64,000 nt of DNA from a virus (IMGVR_UViG_3300028832_000095:1-64000); one strand, 5' to 3'. Numbered from the stretch's first letter, positions 3,901 to 17,750 are shown. Program-made: numbers and translations. Notes: generated from the letters alone by a model not told the origin.

Positions 3901-4713
3901 ATGAAACTTACATTAGAAGATCGTAGGTCTGATCTTATTGCTGCTAGGGATGCTTGGGATGCCGAGTATAATAGAGTAAAAGATCAGTTTGATTCCGAGG
4001 TAGATGCTTGGAATGATGCCAAAGACGAAATAAGTTTATTTGTGGAAGATCAAGTAAAAGCGGCATTAGGTAGGGCAGGAAAAGATTTACAAGTAAGCGC
4101 TGAGTTCGCTTATGGTGAATTAGCCCGTGTAGAAGTTGGCAACGGAACTTTTGTTAATCACGACTTCCCACTTACCTGGAATTTTAAGGTAACACTTGAC
4201 AAAGACGGTGAAGTTAAAAAAGAAACAGGTTCTTGGTCCGGACTGGATGCTACATCTTTAGAAGATGTTAGAAAATTAAGAGACATTGTCGATGTACTAG
4301 AAATCTTAAATAGCATGGATTGGTATACTGTTCTCTCTAATATGAAAGCACAGTACCCTGATTGGAAAGAGTATGTAAAGACAAAAACAATTGATAGAGG
4401 TACAAGACCTAATTTCGAAGCAGATCTTCAAGCATTAGACATTGATGACGCCATTGGAAAAGAAGTTCTAATCAAAGGAAAACCTTTACGGTATGATACA
4501 AGATTCAATCGTGAAAGCTACTATATCATTCGTAAAAGAACACCAAAACAGATTTCTGTTACAGAATGTTCTGTTGCATCTGTAGATAGATATAAGAAAA
4601 ATAATCCGGAAGACAGTCTGTTTGATATCGTACAGCGTTATGGTATGGATTATAATATAACAGCAGATAAGTTCTATAACATTCTGCCAAATGATATTGA
4701 GTTTATTAGATAA
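3901..4713 (+). CDS. hypothetical protein
   Basis: 270-aa ORF, AAGGA RBS, N-terminus MKLTLED. Confidence 0.75.
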   Translation: MKLTLEDRRSDLIAARDAWDAEYNRVKDQFDSEVDAWNDAKDEISLFVEDQVKAALGRAGKDLQVSAEFAYGELARVEVGNGTFVNHDFPLTWNFKVTLDKDGEVKKETGSWSGLDATSLEDVRKLRDIVDVLEILNSMDWYTVLSNMKAQYPDWKEYVKTKTIDRGTRPNFEADLQALDIDDAIGKEVLIKGKPLRYDTRFNRESYYIIRKRTPKQISVTECSVASVDRYKKNNPEDSLFDIVQRYGMDYNITADKFYNILPNDIEFIR

Positions 4714-4716
4714 GGG

Positions 4717-5445
4717 GTGCCAAATATGAGAAAAAGATATGCAAGATTAAAAGAAGCAAAAGGTTCTGTTTATGATATGATCAATGCCCTCGAGAATAGA
4801 ATTGAGGAACTTGAAAACGGTTATTATGGTGAAAGTGTAAATCTTAGGGAAGACTATTCGGATGATGATGTCAGAGAGCTAGTTCTTTATATCACAAATA
4901 AAGCAGAGCTTTATAACCAAATCAAGTCTACTATTAGAAATATGAAGAGAAAGATTGCCCGTAATCAGTATGACCCGGAGCGCGCAATTGATGCCTTTGT
5001 ATATGTTGCTAAAGATGGAGCAAAGATGTATGATAAGGAATTTGGTTCCTATAATGGATCTAGTACATGGTTAAATAAAGATACTATTCGTGAAGTTGCA
5101 AAACAGCTTAGAGATTATTACGAAGAAGATATTATGGAAAATGAAGTGACATTCGAATCTTTTAGAAAAAGCAGAAGATCCCGTACACCTAGAAGAAGAA
5201 TGACTGAATCTAGTAGACGCAGATATACTCAGAGAGAACTTAGAAATCTTGTTAGAACTGGTGAAGCAGAGGATATCACAAACTATTCTTTTGAAGATGC
5301 TAATGATCTCTATGAGCGTGGATATGATGTTGTAGGTGTTTCATCTGGTACATATGGTATGAATGGTGCTTTACTTAAAATGAGAGATACCGGAGATCTA
5401 ATGGCTATTTGTGCTAGAAACTCTACTCTTATGCAACTTGTTTAA
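4717..5445 (+). CDS. multi-module hypothetical protein
   Basis: 242 aa; two compact domains separated by basic linkers ending in LRED/TFES/MTES. Confidence 0.75.
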   Translation: MPNMRKRYARLKEAKGSVYDMINALENRIEELENGYYGESVNLREDYSDDDVRELVLYITNKAELYNQIKSTIRNMKRKIARNQYDPERAIDAFVYVAKDGAKMYDKEFGSYNGSSTWLNKDTIREVAKQLRDYYEEDIMENEVTFESFRKSRRSRTPRRRMTESSRRRYTQRELRNLVRTGEAEDITNYSFEDANDLYERGYDVVGVSSGTYGMNGALLKMRDTGDLMAICARNSTLMQLV

Positions 5446-5460
5446 GGAGTGTGAATAGAA

Positions 5461-6102
5461 ATGGTTAAGAAGTTAAAAGAATCTCCAAGAAGAACTTATG
5501 TTGCTCAGTCACTTAGAAACTCAGGACTTACAGAAGTAACAGATAAAGCCAGTATAATTTCAAAATTGAGAAGGATAGTTACAGATATTGAACGAAGAGG
5601 AGAACTAGCTTTAGATAAGTACGGTTTGATTGATATGGATAAATTTTTATCAAGATCTCAGTTTTCAAGAATGAGAATATTAAATGATACTGTAACTGAT
5701 TTAAAAAATATTGAAACAGAGATTCGCAGAGATGGAAAGGCAAAAATAAGATCAAGGCTGTACGCTGATTTCTTACGTGATCTCGGATTCGATGTAACAG
5801 ATGATGGTAATTATGCTTATATTGTAGAAAATATTAAAGCAAATTCATCTAAAAGAAATAAATTTAGTAGAGATAAAAAACGCAATATTAAAGAATCATC
5901 CGGAAGATTTCAATATGAAAGTGTTTCTGATGTTGCAATAGATATAAAGAATTGTATTAAAGAAGCATATGATCTTCTTGATTCCGGAACAGAAGGTCTT
6001 ACAGAAGAAGATAATAAGTACATCCACAGATCAATAGACTTACTTATTTTTGCATATAATGCTTGTTTAGATTTATGTGCTGAACTTGAAAACTATTCGT
6101 AA
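5461..6102 (+). CDS. hypothetical protein
   Basis: 213 aa, AAGGAG RBS, KKLKES and NIKES motifs. Confidence 0.75.
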   Translation: MVKKLKESPRRTYVAQSLRNSGLTEVTDKASIISKLRRIVTDIERRGELALDKYGLIDMDKFLSRSQFSRMRILNDTVTDLKNIETEIRRDGKAKIRSRLYADFLRDLGFDVTDDGNYAYIVENIKANSSKRNKFSRDKKRNIKESSGRFQYESVSDVAIDIKNCIKEAYDLLDSGTEGLTEEDNKYIHRSIDLLIFAYNACLDLCAELENYS

Positions 6103-12872: not shown

Positions 12873-13706
12873 ATGGCATCTATGATTAACGAAGCCCTGC
12901 TTGAAAATCAGGCAAAGGGTAAAAAACTAATCGAAAGATTCAGCAGAAATATTCGTATTGCTGAGTCCGTACAGAAGAAGAAGGGTAGCACCCTTACACT
13001 TGAGAAGAAGATGGCTCTTGCACAGGTTCTTTCAAACACTCAGCAGAGACTTGCTGAGGCTACTAATTCCTCTAACATTCCTAGCAAGACATTCTTTATG
13101 GATATGCTGACCGCAGTTGTTCCAAACCTTATCGCTCCTGATATCGTTTCTACTCAGGCTCTTGAGTCTAAGGCAGGTATGATTTCTTACCTCCGTTTCT
13201 CCTATGGTACTGATAAAGGAACTGTCAGTGCAGGTCAGATGTTTAACAACTCCCTTTACACCGGACAGTCCAACACCTATTATTCTTCCAGAACAATTGA
13301 TGAGGAGCCTGTTGCAACTGGTGTGAACTTTGAGTTTGTTCCAATTCTCCCAAAGACTATTGTTATTTCACTTCCAGATGGTACTCGTTATGTTGATGAC
13401 GGTACTGGTAATCTTGTTGATCCACTAACTGCAACTCAGGTTGGTACTATTGACTATGCAACTGGTGCTTTCACTTGTGCATCTGCTACTGATGGCACAA
13501 CTGCTACATATGAGTACAACAATGAGCAGGTTCCGGATCTTAACGTTCCAGAGATCAATATGTCTCTCGCACAGATTCCAGTTTATGCAAAGAGCAGAAA
13601 ACTTGCTGCTTACTGGGGCTTTGATGCAGCTTATGATCTTAAACAGCAGTATGGTACTGAGATTCTTGATGTTATGTCCACTCAGGCTGCTGGTGAGATT
13701 GCCCAT
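12873..13706 (+). CDS. major capsid protein (T4 gp23-like), exon 1
   Basis: VPNLIAPDIVSTQ, AKSRKLAAYW, DLKQQYG, GEIAH; joins exon 2 as GEIAH|EIDMEVI. Confidence 0.92.
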
Positions 13707-14726
13707 AAACAACTTGTGGCTTAATCTGGTGACAGATTATGAAAAACCATGTGAATTTCTGGAAAAGCATATAAGAAGTCATATCACTTATATGCCAATC
13801 AGAAGCCAAGATAATTATAATTGAGGTAGTTTATATGTATGGTTACATTTACATGACAACAAATAATATCAATGGCAGAAAATATATCGGTCAGAAAAAA
13901 TCTAATAAGTTTCTCAATGAAAAGTATTTAGGTTCTGGAAAGATACTGAAACAAGCTATTGAATTATATGGAAAAGAGAATTTTTCAGTTCAATTGTTAT
14001 GTGAATGCGAATCAAAAGAAGAGCTTGACAGAATGGAAGTTTATTATATTTCAAAGTACAATGCAAAAGATAGCAGAGAATTTTATAATATATGTAAAGG
14101 TGGAGAAGCCGGACCTGGTGGAGATAAGTTCAGAGGTCATAAGCATACAAATGAAACAAGAGAGCTTATGAGTAAAAACAGATCTGGTGAAAAGAATTCA
14201 AACTATGGAAACCATTGGAAATATAATGAAGTTCAATTAGAGAATAGACGAAAACTTATGTCAGGCTCAGGTAATCCGATGTATGGTAAAAAACAATCGG
14301 ATGAGACAAAGAAAAAGATAAGTGATAAACTTAAAGGAAGATTAAATGGAAAAACAAGAGTTACAAACGGAGAAATAAATAAATTCATTGATGTTTGCGA
14401 TCTTGCCTATTATGAATCTTTAGGATATCACAAAGGTATTTGTCGAAAGTCAAAATAAACTACAAAATTATAATTATAAGGTTCAGAGACTATCGAAAGC
14501 TAGACAATCGCATTTGTAGAAATACATAAACACATAAGCAGATGTGGGCGATTTGAAAATAAGGCTATTATAGCACGAAGCAAGTAGAGTAGGATTTAGT
14601 AAATCCGAAGTGCATGGGTTCTCATATATTTGGTAATAGAATATTTGAGAATGTGATATAGTCCGATCTATACAAAATACATAATGTATAGAGAACTATG
14701 GGAAACGCATAGTTCGTAACATAATG
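13707..14726 (+). ncRNA. group I intron 1 of capsid gene (carries GIY-YIG endonuclease gene)
   Basis: 5' exon ends in U pairing with IGS GUGG (13716-19); Q AATCAGAAGCCAAG, R GTTCAGAGACTA, S GATATAGTCC; ends in G14726; in-frame junction. Confidence 0.88.
13835..14458 (+). CDS. GIY-YIG homing endonuclease with NUMOD3-like repeats (intron-encoded)
   Basis: GYIY...KYIG, YLGSG, FYN; HKHTNETRELMS and KKQSDETKKKIS repeats. Confidence 0.9.
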   Translation: MYGYIYMTTNNINGRKYIGQKKSNKFLNEKYLGSGKILKQAIELYGKENFSVQLLCECESKEELDRMEVYYISKYNAKDSREFYNICKGGEAGPGGDKFRGHKHTNETRELMSKNRSGEKNSNYGNHWKYNEVQLENRRKLMSGSGNPMYGKKQSDETKKKISDKLKGRLNGKTRVTNGEINKFIDVCDLAYYESLGYHKGICRKSK

Positions 14727-15102
14727 GAGATTGATATGGAAGTTATCAGCAAACTCTATCAGGGTGCTGCTGCTGGTCCAGAACTTACTTGGTCTAAGAT
14801 TCCACCTCACGGTGTAAATGCACTTGACCACTATGATTCCTTCTTTGTAAGACTTACAGAGGGTGCAAACATTATCTTTGGTGCAACCCAGAGAGTTCAG
14901 CCGAACTTCATTGTTTGTGGTATCAATGTTGCTGCTGTTATTGAAGTTATGAGAAACTTTGATGGTACTGGTGCATCTGATGCAGTTGGTCCTCACTTCA
15001 TTGGTACTCTTGGTGGTAAGTACAAAGTTTATGTTGCTCCTAACATGGGTGAGGATACCTTTGTTATGGGTTATAAGGGTACAAACTTCCTCGAAGCTGG
15101 AT
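14727..15102 (+). CDS. major capsid protein, exon 2
   Basis: EIDMEVI...NFIVCG...GTLGGKYKVYV...GYKG: gp23 family. Confidence 0.9.
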
Positions 15103-15502
15103 TAACGGATTATGCCGTTGCTGCGTAATACAAGTCCAGGGTAAACCTCGTGAACTGCTGGAAAGCTCGTAAGTGAGTCAATCAGCAGCCAAGCACTATT
15201 GAATAAATAGTGAAGGTTCAACGACTATCGAAAGCTAAACAACCACATTTACAGAAATGTATAAATAGTTGTTACTAGGTGGTTTGAAAATAAGGTTATA
15301 AATATAACACGAAGCAAGTAGAGTACAGCCTTTATTAAAAAGGTTAGCCGTAAAATGATATTAGTTTTACATAAGTCTGTTAAATGGAAGTGCGAGGGTT
15401 TCTATTAGCTTGGTAACAGAGTTGATAGATTCATGATATAGTCTGATCCCCATAGTGATATGGGAAATATACACTATATTACAAAGTGTATAAACATAAA
15501 TG
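15103..15502 (+). ncRNA. group I intron 2 of capsid gene (ORF-less, 400 nt)
   Basis: IGS AUACAA-GUCCAG pairs with CUGGAU|UUGUAU (U.G at splice site); P/Q/R/S core TGCTGGAAA, AATCAGCAGCC, GTTCAACGACTA, GATATAGTCT; ends in G15502; junction gives EAGFVYAPY. Confidence 0.92.
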
Positions 15503-15645
15503 TTGTATACGCACCGTATATTCCTGTTTGCACAACAGACCTTCTTATGCCAGCAGATTTCCGTGGTCAGCAAGGTTATGCTACCAGTTATGGTATGAAA
15601 ATGATTAACGGAAAAATGTATCTTAGAGGCAGAATAACAGGTTGA
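15503..15645 (+). CDS. major capsid protein, exon 3 plus C-terminal copy A (used if intron 3 is not spliced)
   Basis: FVYAPY-IPVCTTDLLMPADFRGQQGYATSYGMKMINGKMYLRGRITG*; total protein 450 aa. Confidence 0.85.
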
Positions 15646-16957
15646 TAGCAAACAATAAGGTATGTACCTTCATATAGTGATATATGATTGTAGTAACAAA
15701 GGTGAATTCAGGGAACATCCTTAGAGCTTAAACTACCAAGCATATACAGTAATGTGTATGTGGATGAAGTAATTACTCATGTACGGTAACAAGGTTTAAG
15801 ATTGGATAACCACTGAGCCAAGCATCCAATTTGTTTTTGGATGAAGGTGCAACGACTATGGGGTGGTGCCCAGTAGGTTCAAATGAACCGAAGTTCCTTT
15901 GGGCTTTGTTTGTAAAGAACAAAGTTTATGATATAGTCTAGCCTTAGTTGATACGAAATTCAACAACCTATTAAATAGGTTTCCGAAAGGATGAGCATCT
16001 TAAAAATGACTGAGAGGTTTATATGATAAAATGCTGTGTATGTGGGCAAACGGTGACATCTAAACGTGGTTTAGCGTTTCATGTGAAGAAACATGATATA
16101 CAGTCTGTTGATGATTATATTAAAATGTTTCCAGATGAAGAACAAACACTGAATCCAAGCATAGATGGACTACTTAGCTGCCCGATTTGCGGAAAGAAAA
16201 ACTTGAAACAACTCACACAACATTTGACATGGATTCACGGATTATCACGATCTGAATTTGAAACTAATTACCCAGAGCAGATATTGTTTATTCCAGAAAT
16301 AAGCGATAGATGTAAAAAAGCGACTGCAATAGGTCACGAAAAATATCTTGAAAATGTAAAAAACAATCCTGAACGATATAAGAAAACCTACCTTGAACGC
16401 GCTGCAAAGATTCGTGAACGATATCCGAACTTAGGAAATCGTATATCGAATAAACTAAGAGAGAATGGAACGTATGCCAGACTTTCCGACATAACGAGAA
16501 AAAAATGGAACGACGAATCTTATCGCAGAATGCAATCAGAAAAGTGCAAAAATCAACATAAGAACGGTTTAACTGAAATAGTTGTTAAGAAATCTTGTAA
16601 TAAAAATTACGTTAAATTTGCTACATTTAATGGAAAGACATATAGATTCCGATCCTCATACGAGTTGAAGTTCGCTGAAATATTGAATAATCTTGGCATT
16701 TCATTCATGTACGAGGAGTTAAAAATAAATTATTTTTATAATGGATTGTTTCATACATACTACCCTGATTTTGCAATACCAAACACGAATATTGTGTTTG
16801 AGGTAAAGCCATATTTTAGAATTCAAACAAAAATGAATCAGGCAAAACAAAGATACTGCGTAGAAAATGGGTATAGTTTTAGATACATAACAGAGTACGA
16901 ACTAAATAATCCAGAATCAATAAATCTCAAAGGATGTTTTTAAGCGTAATAAAAGCA
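15520..16957 (+). ncRNA. group I intron 3 of capsid gene; 5' part holds a duplicate terminal exon, P9 region holds an endonuclease gene
   Basis: Core at ~15700-15940 (GAATTCAGGGAA, CTGAGCCAAGC, GTGCAACGACTA, GATATAGTCT); IGS AGGUAU-GUAC 15658-67 pairs with GUAU|AUGCCU; boundaries inferred. Confidence 0.75.
16023..16943 (+). CDS. intron-encoded putative homing endonuclease: C2H2 zinc fingers plus PD-(D/E)XK nuclease
   Basis: CCVC..HVKKH, CPIC..HLTWIH; RSSYE...YYPDF...FEVK. Confidence 0.8.
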   Translation: MIKCCVCGQTVTSKRGLAFHVKKHDIQSVDDYIKMFPDEEQTLNPSIDGLLSCPICGKKNLKQLTQHLTWIHGLSRSEFETNYPEQILFIPEISDRCKKATAIGHEKYLENVKNNPERYKKTYLERAAKIRERYPNLGNRISNKLRENGTYARLSDITRKKWNDESYRRMQSEKCKNQHKNGLTEIVVKKSCNKNYVKFATFNGKTYRFRSSYELKFAEILNNLGISFMYEELKINYFYNGLFHTYYPDFAIPNTNIVFEVKPYFRIQTKMNQAKQRYCVENGYSFRYITEYELNNPESINLKGCF

Positions 16958-17083
16958 ATGCCTATACTTTCCACCGACCTCTTAATGCCTGCTGACTTCC
17001 GTGGACAGCAAGCTTATGCAACATCTTACGGTATGAAGATGATCAATGGTAAGATGTATCTCCGTGGTAGAATTACTGGTTAA
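16958..17083 (+). CDS. major capsid protein, terminal exon copy B
   Basis: MPILSTDLLMPADFRGQQAYATSYGMKMINGKMYLRGRITG*; 36/41 identical to copy A; absent from the ORF track. Confidence 0.82.
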   Translation: MPILSTDLLMPADFRGQQAYATSYGMKMINGKMYLRGRITG

Positions 17084-17100
17084 TTTCTATCCTATTGAAT

Positions 17101-17137
17101 GTGGTTATGTGGCATTTCAACTATGCCACATAACTAC
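17101..17137 (+). terminator. stem-loop after capsid gene (terminator or mRNA stabiliser)
   Basis: GTGGTTATGTGGCAT / ATGCCACATAACTAC. Confidence 0.7.
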
Positions 17138-17177
17138 TGTAAAATAAAAAATATTTTAATTGAAAGGACGATTCTAT

Positions 17178-17750
17178 ATGGCACTTACTACTTATACCGT
17201 TACGATTACCAATCAGAATACTGATCCAAGAGTAATCGCAGGTACTGTTGATACTACTGTTATTTCTCCAACTGGTATCACTACTCCTCAGACTCCTTTT
17301 GAAGAGTACATTTCTGATAGCCAGACAATCAATGACGGTTCTATCCTAGTTCCACTTTTCCAGAAGTTCTTTGATTTCAAGTTAAAGGCATCCTCTATTC
17401 TTACTCTTACTACTGAGGATAGTGAGGAAGCTGCTTACTACTCCAATCTTAAACTTGATGGAGCACTTGTTGCTGTTACCACTGATCCTGTTGTCACTGT
17501 TAGTGTTACACTTTCCGAGACTACTGCTGAGATCACCACTAATGGCGGTACAAAGGCACTTTCTGCTACCACAACTCCTGCTTCCGGTGTTACTGTTACA
17601 TGGGCATCTTCTGATGAGACTGTTGCAACTGTATCCAGTGGAACTGTTACCGCAGTTGGTAATGGTACTGCCGTTATTACTGCAACTGGTACTATTGATG
17701 GTGTAACCGCTATTGCTACTTGCACTGTTACTGTTTCCGGTCAGTCTTAA
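17178..17750 (+). CDS. Ig-like (Big_2) domain virion decoration protein
   Basis: VTWASSDETVATVSSGTVTAVGNGTAVITAT motif; directly after the capsid gene. Confidence 0.85.
   Translation: MALTTYTVTITNQNTDPRVIAGTVDTTVISPTGITTPQTPFEEYISDSQTINDGSILVPLFQKFFDFKLKASSILTLTTEDSEEAAYYSNLKLDGALVAVTTDPVVTVSVTLSETTAEITTNGGTKALSATTTPASGVTVTWASSDETVATVSSGTVTAVGNGTAVITATGTIDGVTAIATCTVTVSGQS

Follow-up and report, generated by a model that had tools for sequence, protein, structure and literature searches.

In the major capsid gene of a rumen phage the last exon is present twice, once in its usual place at the end of the gene and once, reworded with different codons, inside the group I intron immediately upstream. 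The DNA concerned is a 64,000-nucleotide (nt) stretch of one virus (IMGVR_UViG_3300028832_000095:1-64000, hereafter the window), which belongs to a 201,895-bp IMG/VR virus record whose source samples are bovine rumen. The gene is of the T4 type (Pfam Gp23) and spans 12873-17083 in four exons. The arrangement is best read, and we think probably correctly so, as a fail-safe mobile group I intron with a spare exon, from which even unspliced RNA would encode a working capsid protein. The evidence for this reading comes from the anatomy of the element, its conservation in related phages, the covariation of its RNA helices and the selection seen on the spare exon. A complication is that the intron of the window ends in A rather than in G.

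The last 41 codons of the gene occur first within the third intron (copy A) and again directly after it (copy B). The copies are identical at 90 of 123 nucleotides and at 36 of 41 amino acids (aa), yet 21 of the 32 identical residues other than methionine are specified by different codons, and neither copy is disrupted. An earlier interpretation, made without database searches (the sequence-only reading), had described this duplication, and its coordinates and hand counts were reproduced exactly, as was its capsid length of 450 aa (the exons total 450 codons). At the protein level the peptides IPVCTTDLLMPADFR and GQQGYATSYGMK distinguish copy A, and MPILSTDLLMPADFR and GQQAYATSYGMK copy B, the former reading IPVCT.. 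and ..GQQGY.. where the latter reads MPILS.. and ..GQQAY... All five intron-free relatives (5/5) read YAPY-MPIL(S/T)TD across the insertion site, which is the copy B form, so copy B is the native exon, as had been supposed, and copy A is part of the inserted element. The intron-free site itself reads CCGTAT followed by ATGCCTAT (wider site, CCGTATATGCCTAT). From 5' to 3', then, the order is an in-frame substitute C-terminus with its stop codon, an endonuclease open reading frame (ORF), and the displaced native end of the gene.

The space between the copies holds a complete group I core and a zinc-finger nuclease gene, both of which the sequence-only reading had recognized. The cores of the relatives score 51-64 bits against Rfam, and compensatory changes are found at 55 of 102 predicted core pairs among seven loci; by this measure the ribozyme is under selection. 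The P7 helix, GACUA/UAGUC, is kept in all loci, in two of them (L184 and L186) through a compensatory change of U-A to C-G (GACCA/UGGUC). Its G-C pair is presumably the G-binding site, judging by comparison with P7 of Tetrahymena.

The splice sites of this intron can be placed by pairing with the internal guide. The guide segment GUAC (15664-15667) pairs with exon GUAU (15516-15519) to form P1, leaving a U.G pair (U15519.G15664) at the 5' splice site, while the segment AGGUAU pairs with the opening AUGCCU of copy B to form P10. An unconstrained RNAfold prediction for 15510-15700 pairs GUAUAU (15516-15521) with guide UAUGUAC (z = -2.13) and carries the helix on through CCU/AGG and then GUUUGC/GCAAAC. 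P1 covaries at position -4, where exon CCGUAU goes with GUAC and CCCUAU with GUAG (a change from G-C to C-G in L008 and L192), and the first intron base covaries with the guide (A/C/U with U/G/G). At the far end of the intron, P9.0 directly adjoins the last intron base and covaries in both of the clades distinguished below (GC/GC, UC/GA, GA/UC, UU/AA, AG/CU and CC/GG). The covariation of P1 and P9.0, with the pairing of P10, thus puts the splice sites where the sequence-only reading had them, at CCGTAT/ATGCCT, with the whole of copy A in the P1 loop. A different P1 was considered, namely the local helix of the Rfam alignment (CAGGUUGAU with AUGUACCUU), in which the 5' splice site falls near the copy A stop; it was rejected, as it pairs poorly and is not kept in L008, L179 or L005.

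A loop of this size is closed by an additional helix. Codons 2-5 of copy A pair with bases at or just after its own stop codon, extending P1, and in the relatives the same extension is formed by other sequences: GUUUGU/ACAAAC, AAUUU/AAAUU, UGCUU/AAGCA, AACUG/CAGUU and CUGUG/CACAG, together with CUAUAUUA/UAAUAUAG and CUGUAUUAA/UUAGUACAG. Cognate duplexes have a mean of -8.5 kcal/mol, compared with -5.1 for non-cognate ones, and the cognate mean was reached in 0 of 20000 permutations; kinship of the sequences inflates this test, but the variety of the pairs is plain nonetheless. The pairing explains why copy A has unusual residues in codons 1-5, which vary by lineage (IPVCT, IPITS, QPVLT, QAVAT, FPVLT and LPVAT).

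The layout is not peculiar to the window. Loci were gathered from viral contigs, from metagenome contigs and by a protein search with the nuclease, and they come from independent assemblies (JGI, ENA, Logan and NCBI). The same order was found in 15 distinct close loci, in every one of which both copies have exactly 41 codons and a stop (15/15), and in one distant locus, L193, where capsid exon 2 is just 37% identical. Both copies are intact in all 16. One locus (L005) has lost the nuclease ORF and has kept copy A, ribozyme, 3' tail and copy B. In two pairs of phages (L004/L003 and L008/L009), whose flanks are about 96-97% identical, the element is present in one member and absent from the other, the pattern expected of a homing element. 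In two further loci, L132 and L192, this intron is found at the identical position, with the same P1 and P10 and with G as its last base, but its P1 loop is short and contains no copy A. Their read-through frame ends after eight codons (KQEESLAA and EENQVMAA, each followed by a stop), so these two phages need splicing to make a whole capsid protein, and the intron family presumably splices in vivo. A scan of viral contigs with AAGGTGCAACGACTAT proved unspecific, matching generic group I cores, and its sole gain was L129 (the same as L131).

The rewording of copy A is both real and systematic. Lysine is written AAA at 26 of 36 positions in copy A, AAG at all 34 in copy B, and AAG at 18 of 19 in the single-copy genes of intron-free relatives; A stands at 32% of third positions in copy A, compared with 17% and 16% in the other two. 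Copy A thus has an A-rich codon style of its own, and copy B and the single-copy genes follow the other capsid exons, in agreement with what the sequence-only reading had said of copy B.

The encoded protein tells a different story from the codons. Over codons 5-41 there are 0-4 aa differences between each copy A and the copy B of its own locus, against 6-10 when copy B is taken from another lineage. Even so, within a locus 0.42-0.74 of the residues that agree are written with different codons, a fraction no lower than with foreign copies B, so that gene conversion is not supported as the source of the matching; the longest identical run between the copies is 8-26 nt. The clearest comparison is that of the window with L182. 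Their capsid bodies are only 82% identical, and the two copies A agree at all synonymous sites and differ by a single change, AGA to AAA at codon 36 (R36K), which exactly mirrors their copies B, one with Arg (CGT) and the other with Lys (AAG) at this codon. Going by these comparisons, copy A is under purifying selection at the protein level. Its match to the residues of the resident capsid is read as selection on copy A itself, which in turn implies that copy A is translated and that its product matters to the phage.

The ORF between the ribozyme and the 3' tail encodes a candidate homing endonuclease with an intact catalytic motif, in which E231, P248-D249 and E260-V-K262 are invariant among four homologues. 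It matches PF05367 at 38 bits (cut-off 29.1) and T7 endonuclease I in the PDB (E = 3e-6), and the position of this nuclease domain inside the intron is that of an intron-encoded PD-(D/E)xK homing endonuclease. The protein search found about 55 close homologues in gut metagenomes, and all of the loci fetched for such homologues (11/11) have the same context of copy A, intron and copy B. The element is also a mosaic: between the window (15503-16943) and L182 (1983-3421), copy A and the ribozyme are 96-100% identical and the nuclease ORF 54-86%. The drop in identity at the nuclease ORF indicates that ribozyme module and nuclease gene have different recent histories.

One detail absent from the sequence-only reading bears directly on splicing. 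The base at the 3' end of a group I intron (omega) is G by the criterion used for the family (RF00028), and here it is A16957, though P9.0 and P10 still define its position. It is likewise A in L181, L182, L183 and L184 (nucleases 56-72% identical to that of the window), whereas the other 11 of the 16 loci that carry copy A have G, as do the two lacking it. A 3-nt shift of the splice sites would place the G of ATG at omega, but this was rejected: P1 has its sole U.G pair at U15519, and the covarying bases of P9.0 are the two that immediately precede the A. The P7 helix of the omega-A clade, including its G-C pair, is unchanged, and the chemistry of group I introns leads one to expect that a terminal A would bind the G site poorly and strongly slow exon ligation. 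In the clade of the window, exons are therefore probably joined to copy B slowly or not at all, the capsid C-terminus probably comes mostly or wholly from copy A, and the earlier claim that spliced RNA yields the copy B isoform in this phage is doubtful. That said, core, P1, P1 extension and P9.0 still covary within the omega-A clade, and P10 is conserved. Either a terminal A is tolerated in ligation, or a weakened second step leaves the burden to copy A. A further proposal, which we consider distinctly unlikely, is that these introns ligate with omega-A, or have a weakened second step, and that together with ribosome traffic over the spare exon this sets a self-adjusting balance between read-through and spliced capsid protein. 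A literature search for natural omega-A introns returned nothing usable. Copy B of the window also has an alanine at codon 19 (GCT, 17012-17014), where every other copy A, copy B and single-copy gene examined has glycine; this may be the first sign that selection on copy B is relaxing.

How such an element might work can be outlined as follows. A mobile group I intron that encodes its own PD-(D/E)xK nuclease would have settled between Tyr and Met of ..YAPY-MPIL.., and its P1 loop would carry the entire downstream exon in frame, rewritten with synonymous codons and ending in a stop. Codons 2-5 of this copy would pair around its own stop, lengthening P1 and bringing the distant 5' splice site to the guide. 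Where the 5' splice site is left unspliced, ribosomes would read through it and produce a capsid protein of normal length and near-native sequence; where the RNA is spliced, the native protein would result. The spare exon would thus make the intron near harmless in a setting where truncated subunits could poison a highly multimeric capsid assembly. Rewording may keep the copies too unlike to recombine easily and so limit deletion of the element, and the altered first codons of copy A, which differ from the intron-free junction, may help it to avoid the nuclease.

Several observations weigh against this scheme. With the G-binding pair of P7 unchanged, an omega A should strongly impair ligation, and the omega-A clade nonetheless keeps P1, P9.0, P10 and core, for which the fail-safe model alone has no explanation. 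The intactness of copy B may stem from repeated fresh invasions rather than from use: over codons 8-41, copy B of L004 is the same as the single copy of L003, and that of L008 the same as the single copy of L009. The codons of copy A (AAA, ATA and AGA) are non-preferred, which is odd for the main C-terminus of the most highly expressed gene, and the scheme gives no account of how copy A takes on the local amino acids without the local codons. Finally, the contigs of one RNA run (X17), from a relative about 97% identical, fall on exons 1 and 2 and on 17008-17198 only; they show no copy A, intron or junction and are uninformative either way.

For this particular phage the main rival to the fail-safe reading is a replacement cassette with a dead ribozyme. 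The cassette would have brought a substitute gene end, the ribozyme would no longer complete splicing, and copy B would be an unexpressed leftover that looks intact only through repeated invasion of fresh intron-free genes. The omega A of the window and its four relatives fits this account, as does the alanine at the otherwise invariant Gly19, and the identity of copy B over codons 8-41 with that of near-identical intron-free phages means that no time for decay is needed. Gene callers, too, annotate a complete Gp23 of 450-451 aa that ends in copy A. We still regard the account as unlikely. The compensatory changes in core, P1, P1 extension and P9.0 within the omega-A clade speak for selection on splice-site recognition, and the relatives without copy A must splice. 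Decay of copy B in relatives, which the sequence-only reading had named as the mark of a simple replacement, is seen in none of the 16 loci, although nuclease identities go down to 32%.

Of the two possibilities entertained by the sequence-only reading, the fail-safe mobile intron fits best, and ribozyme-based alternative splicing of the capsid does not fare well. On the latter view the capsid would be an adaptive mixture of two isoforms, with regulated splicing, for example by ribosome traffic over copy A, setting the subunit ratio. Both copies and all of the splice-site elements are indeed conserved, and the stop of copy A lies within the P1 extension, 13 nt before the guide, so that translation and P1 formation should compete. 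But selection pulls copy A toward copy B, not apart from it, and the constant differences between them, in codons 1-5, follow the RNA pairing and change with the lineage (IPVCT, QPVLT, FPVLT or LPVAT). In L193 copy A starts with MPVSS, like a native exon, and the intron-free relatives build their capsids from one form only, all of which makes a two-isoform capsid improbable. An assembly artefact, or a chimera of two phage strains, was also considered, and a repeat of about 73% identity in a metagenomic contig could in principle cause a mis-join. However, contigs from a second run of the same sample cross both junctions with 0 differences, at 15400-15850 from copy A into the ribozyme and at 16611-17200 from the nuclease end into copy B, and the same order recurs in the 15 other loci. 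The chimera against which the sequence-only reading had warned is thus hardly conceivable.

Phage group I introns with endonucleases are well known from the T4 family (PMC2988022), and some lie in capsid genes, as in Cluster J mycobacteriophages (PMC3706429). The present intron resembles these (T4 td, nrdB and nrdD; Cluster J) in its group I core, the U.G at its 5' splice site, the endonuclease ORF inside it, its location at a conserved site of an essential gene, and its presence/absence polymorphism among close relatives. The known phage introns halt the upstream frame soon after the 5' splice site and hence need splicing. Unlike them, the present element has a 126-nt in-frame exon substitute in its P1 loop, closed by an extra covarying helix, along with a nuclease of the zinc-finger PD-(D/E)xK/T7 endonuclease I type and, in the clade of the window, a terminal A.

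There are also parallels among elements that replace gene ends. In fungal mitochondria, mobile ORFs (mORFs) form hybrid genes in atp6, atp9, cox2 and nad3 (Glomus; PMC3630166). There, as here, an endonuclease element brings an in-frame foreign C-terminal part with a stop and pushes the native end downstream; the mORFs have no ribozyme, however, and the displaced native end is a remnant. In the phage element, by contrast, a conserved ribozyme with matching splice sites could rejoin the native end, copy B is intact throughout, and the substitute stays in step with the host protein. Allomyces atp6 is a further mORF case. Collaborative homing and endonuclease-driven exon duplication are known in phages as well, as with F-CphI and the psbA intron. 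In those cases too intron and nuclease move as a unit that carries exon sequence, but the exon duplicate lies outside the intron as a dead scar, whereas copy A is a selected part of the P1 loop and probably translated. Literature searches returned no description of a translated, recoded copy of the downstream exon inside the P1 loop of a group I intron.

Mobile introns are thought to persist in essential genes only by self-splicing. If the fail-safe reading is right, the present element would have a second, independent route to harmlessness, in that it brings a working substitute for the exon it displaces, and it would form a bridge between self-splicing introns and the endonuclease cassettes that replace gene ends. 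It would also provide a natural test of how splicing decays once it has become dispensable, a stage that the omega-A clade may have reached. The same 126 bases would be shaped at once by their coding function, by the structure of the ribozyme (the P1 extension) and by avoidance of recombination between repeats. There is a practical side as well: in annotation by gene callers the copy A form passes for the capsid protein and the intron goes unnoticed, so that phage genomes probably contain more such elements than have been counted.

The features of the gene are collected in the table below. Exon ends were set by aligning the intron-free capsid protein of L182 (tblastn).

Table. Features of the capsid gene and of its third intron (window coordinates; MFE, minimum free energy)
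Feature	Position	Strand	Basis or remark
Capsid exon 1, Gp23-type, 278 codons; last base U	12873-13706	+	PF07068, 68 bits; end by tblastn
Intron 1, with GIY-YIG/NUMOD3 endonuclease ORF (13835-14458)	13707-14726	+	Gap relative to intron-free relatives; Pfam
Capsid exon 2	14727-15102	+	PF07068, 80.8 bits; aligned to L182 capsid protein
Intron 2, group I, without ORF	15103-15502	+	Rfam RF00028 at 15093-15465, 59.6 bits
Micro-exon 3, 17 nt (..VYAPY)	15503-15519	+	Alignment to intron-free relatives; P1 in fold
Intron 3 (copy A, ribozyme, nuclease gene, 14-nt tail)	15520-16957	+	Inserted at CCGTAT/ATGCCT
Copy A, in-frame surrogate last exon in P1 loop of intron 3, 41 codons (15520-15642) and TGA	15520-15645	+
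P1 extension, 5' strand GUUUGC (copy A codons 3-4)	15526-15531	+	MFE fold, pairs with 15647-15652
P1 extension, 3' strand GCAAAC, just 3' of copy A stop	15647-15652	+	MFE fold; covariation
Internal guide AGGUAUGUAC (AGGUAU-GUAC)	15658-15667	+	Fold and covariation
Group I ribozyme core, P2 to P9	15658-15959	+	Rfam RF00028 match 15634-15959, 52.2 bits (gathering 50)
Homing-endonuclease candidate, 306 aa, two C2H2-like zinc fingers and T7-endonuclease-I-like PD-(D/E)xK domain	16023-16943	+
Intron 3, 3' tail	16944-16957	+	G16955-C16956 form P9.0 with G-C of J7/9; A16957 at omega
Copy B, native last exon, 41 codons (16958-17080) and TAA	16958-17083	+	Same type as single copy of intron-free relatives

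The remainder of the gene contains two further introns. Exon 3, bounded by the 3' splice site of intron 2 on one side and by the 5' splice site of intron 3 on the other, is so short that the same few bases must serve the exon pairings of both introns. Intron 1 has G14726 as its last base, its boundaries being those predicted from the alignment, and its ribozyme core, which is split by the GIY-YIG ORF, was missed by Rfam. Intron 2 ends in G15502 and is lacking in L006, L009, L008 and L182. The first two introns are similar over long stretches, for instance around 14470-14600 and 15215-15345, and look like paralogues; in one relative (L007) a GIY-YIG ORF is present in both.

A megablast of the region against 50,697 phage records gave no match, and among cultured phages the nearest capsid proteins (Bacillus, Listeria and Streptococcus phages) reach an identity of only about 40%. 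A scan for promoters and terminators found nothing that exceeded the shuffled background.

In two loci further features were noted downstream of the capsid gene. In L132, a distant relative, a second zinc-finger PD-(D/E)xK ORF (4034-4732) follows the capsid stop and is succeeded by a second group I core (4698-5052; Rfam 52.6 bits) and then by a recoded version of the last 19 codons (5096-5158; MYGKVLLNSKMYIKGVITP, followed by a stop). Canonical splice sites for this arrangement were looked for and not found; the segment as a whole (3909-5158) is possibly another element that brings a spare gene end, with its parts in a different arrangement. In L193 an IS200/IS605-type pair, consisting of a Y1 transposase and a TnpB/Cas12f-like ORF, lies at 5107-5840, a few kilobases downstream of the capsid gene.

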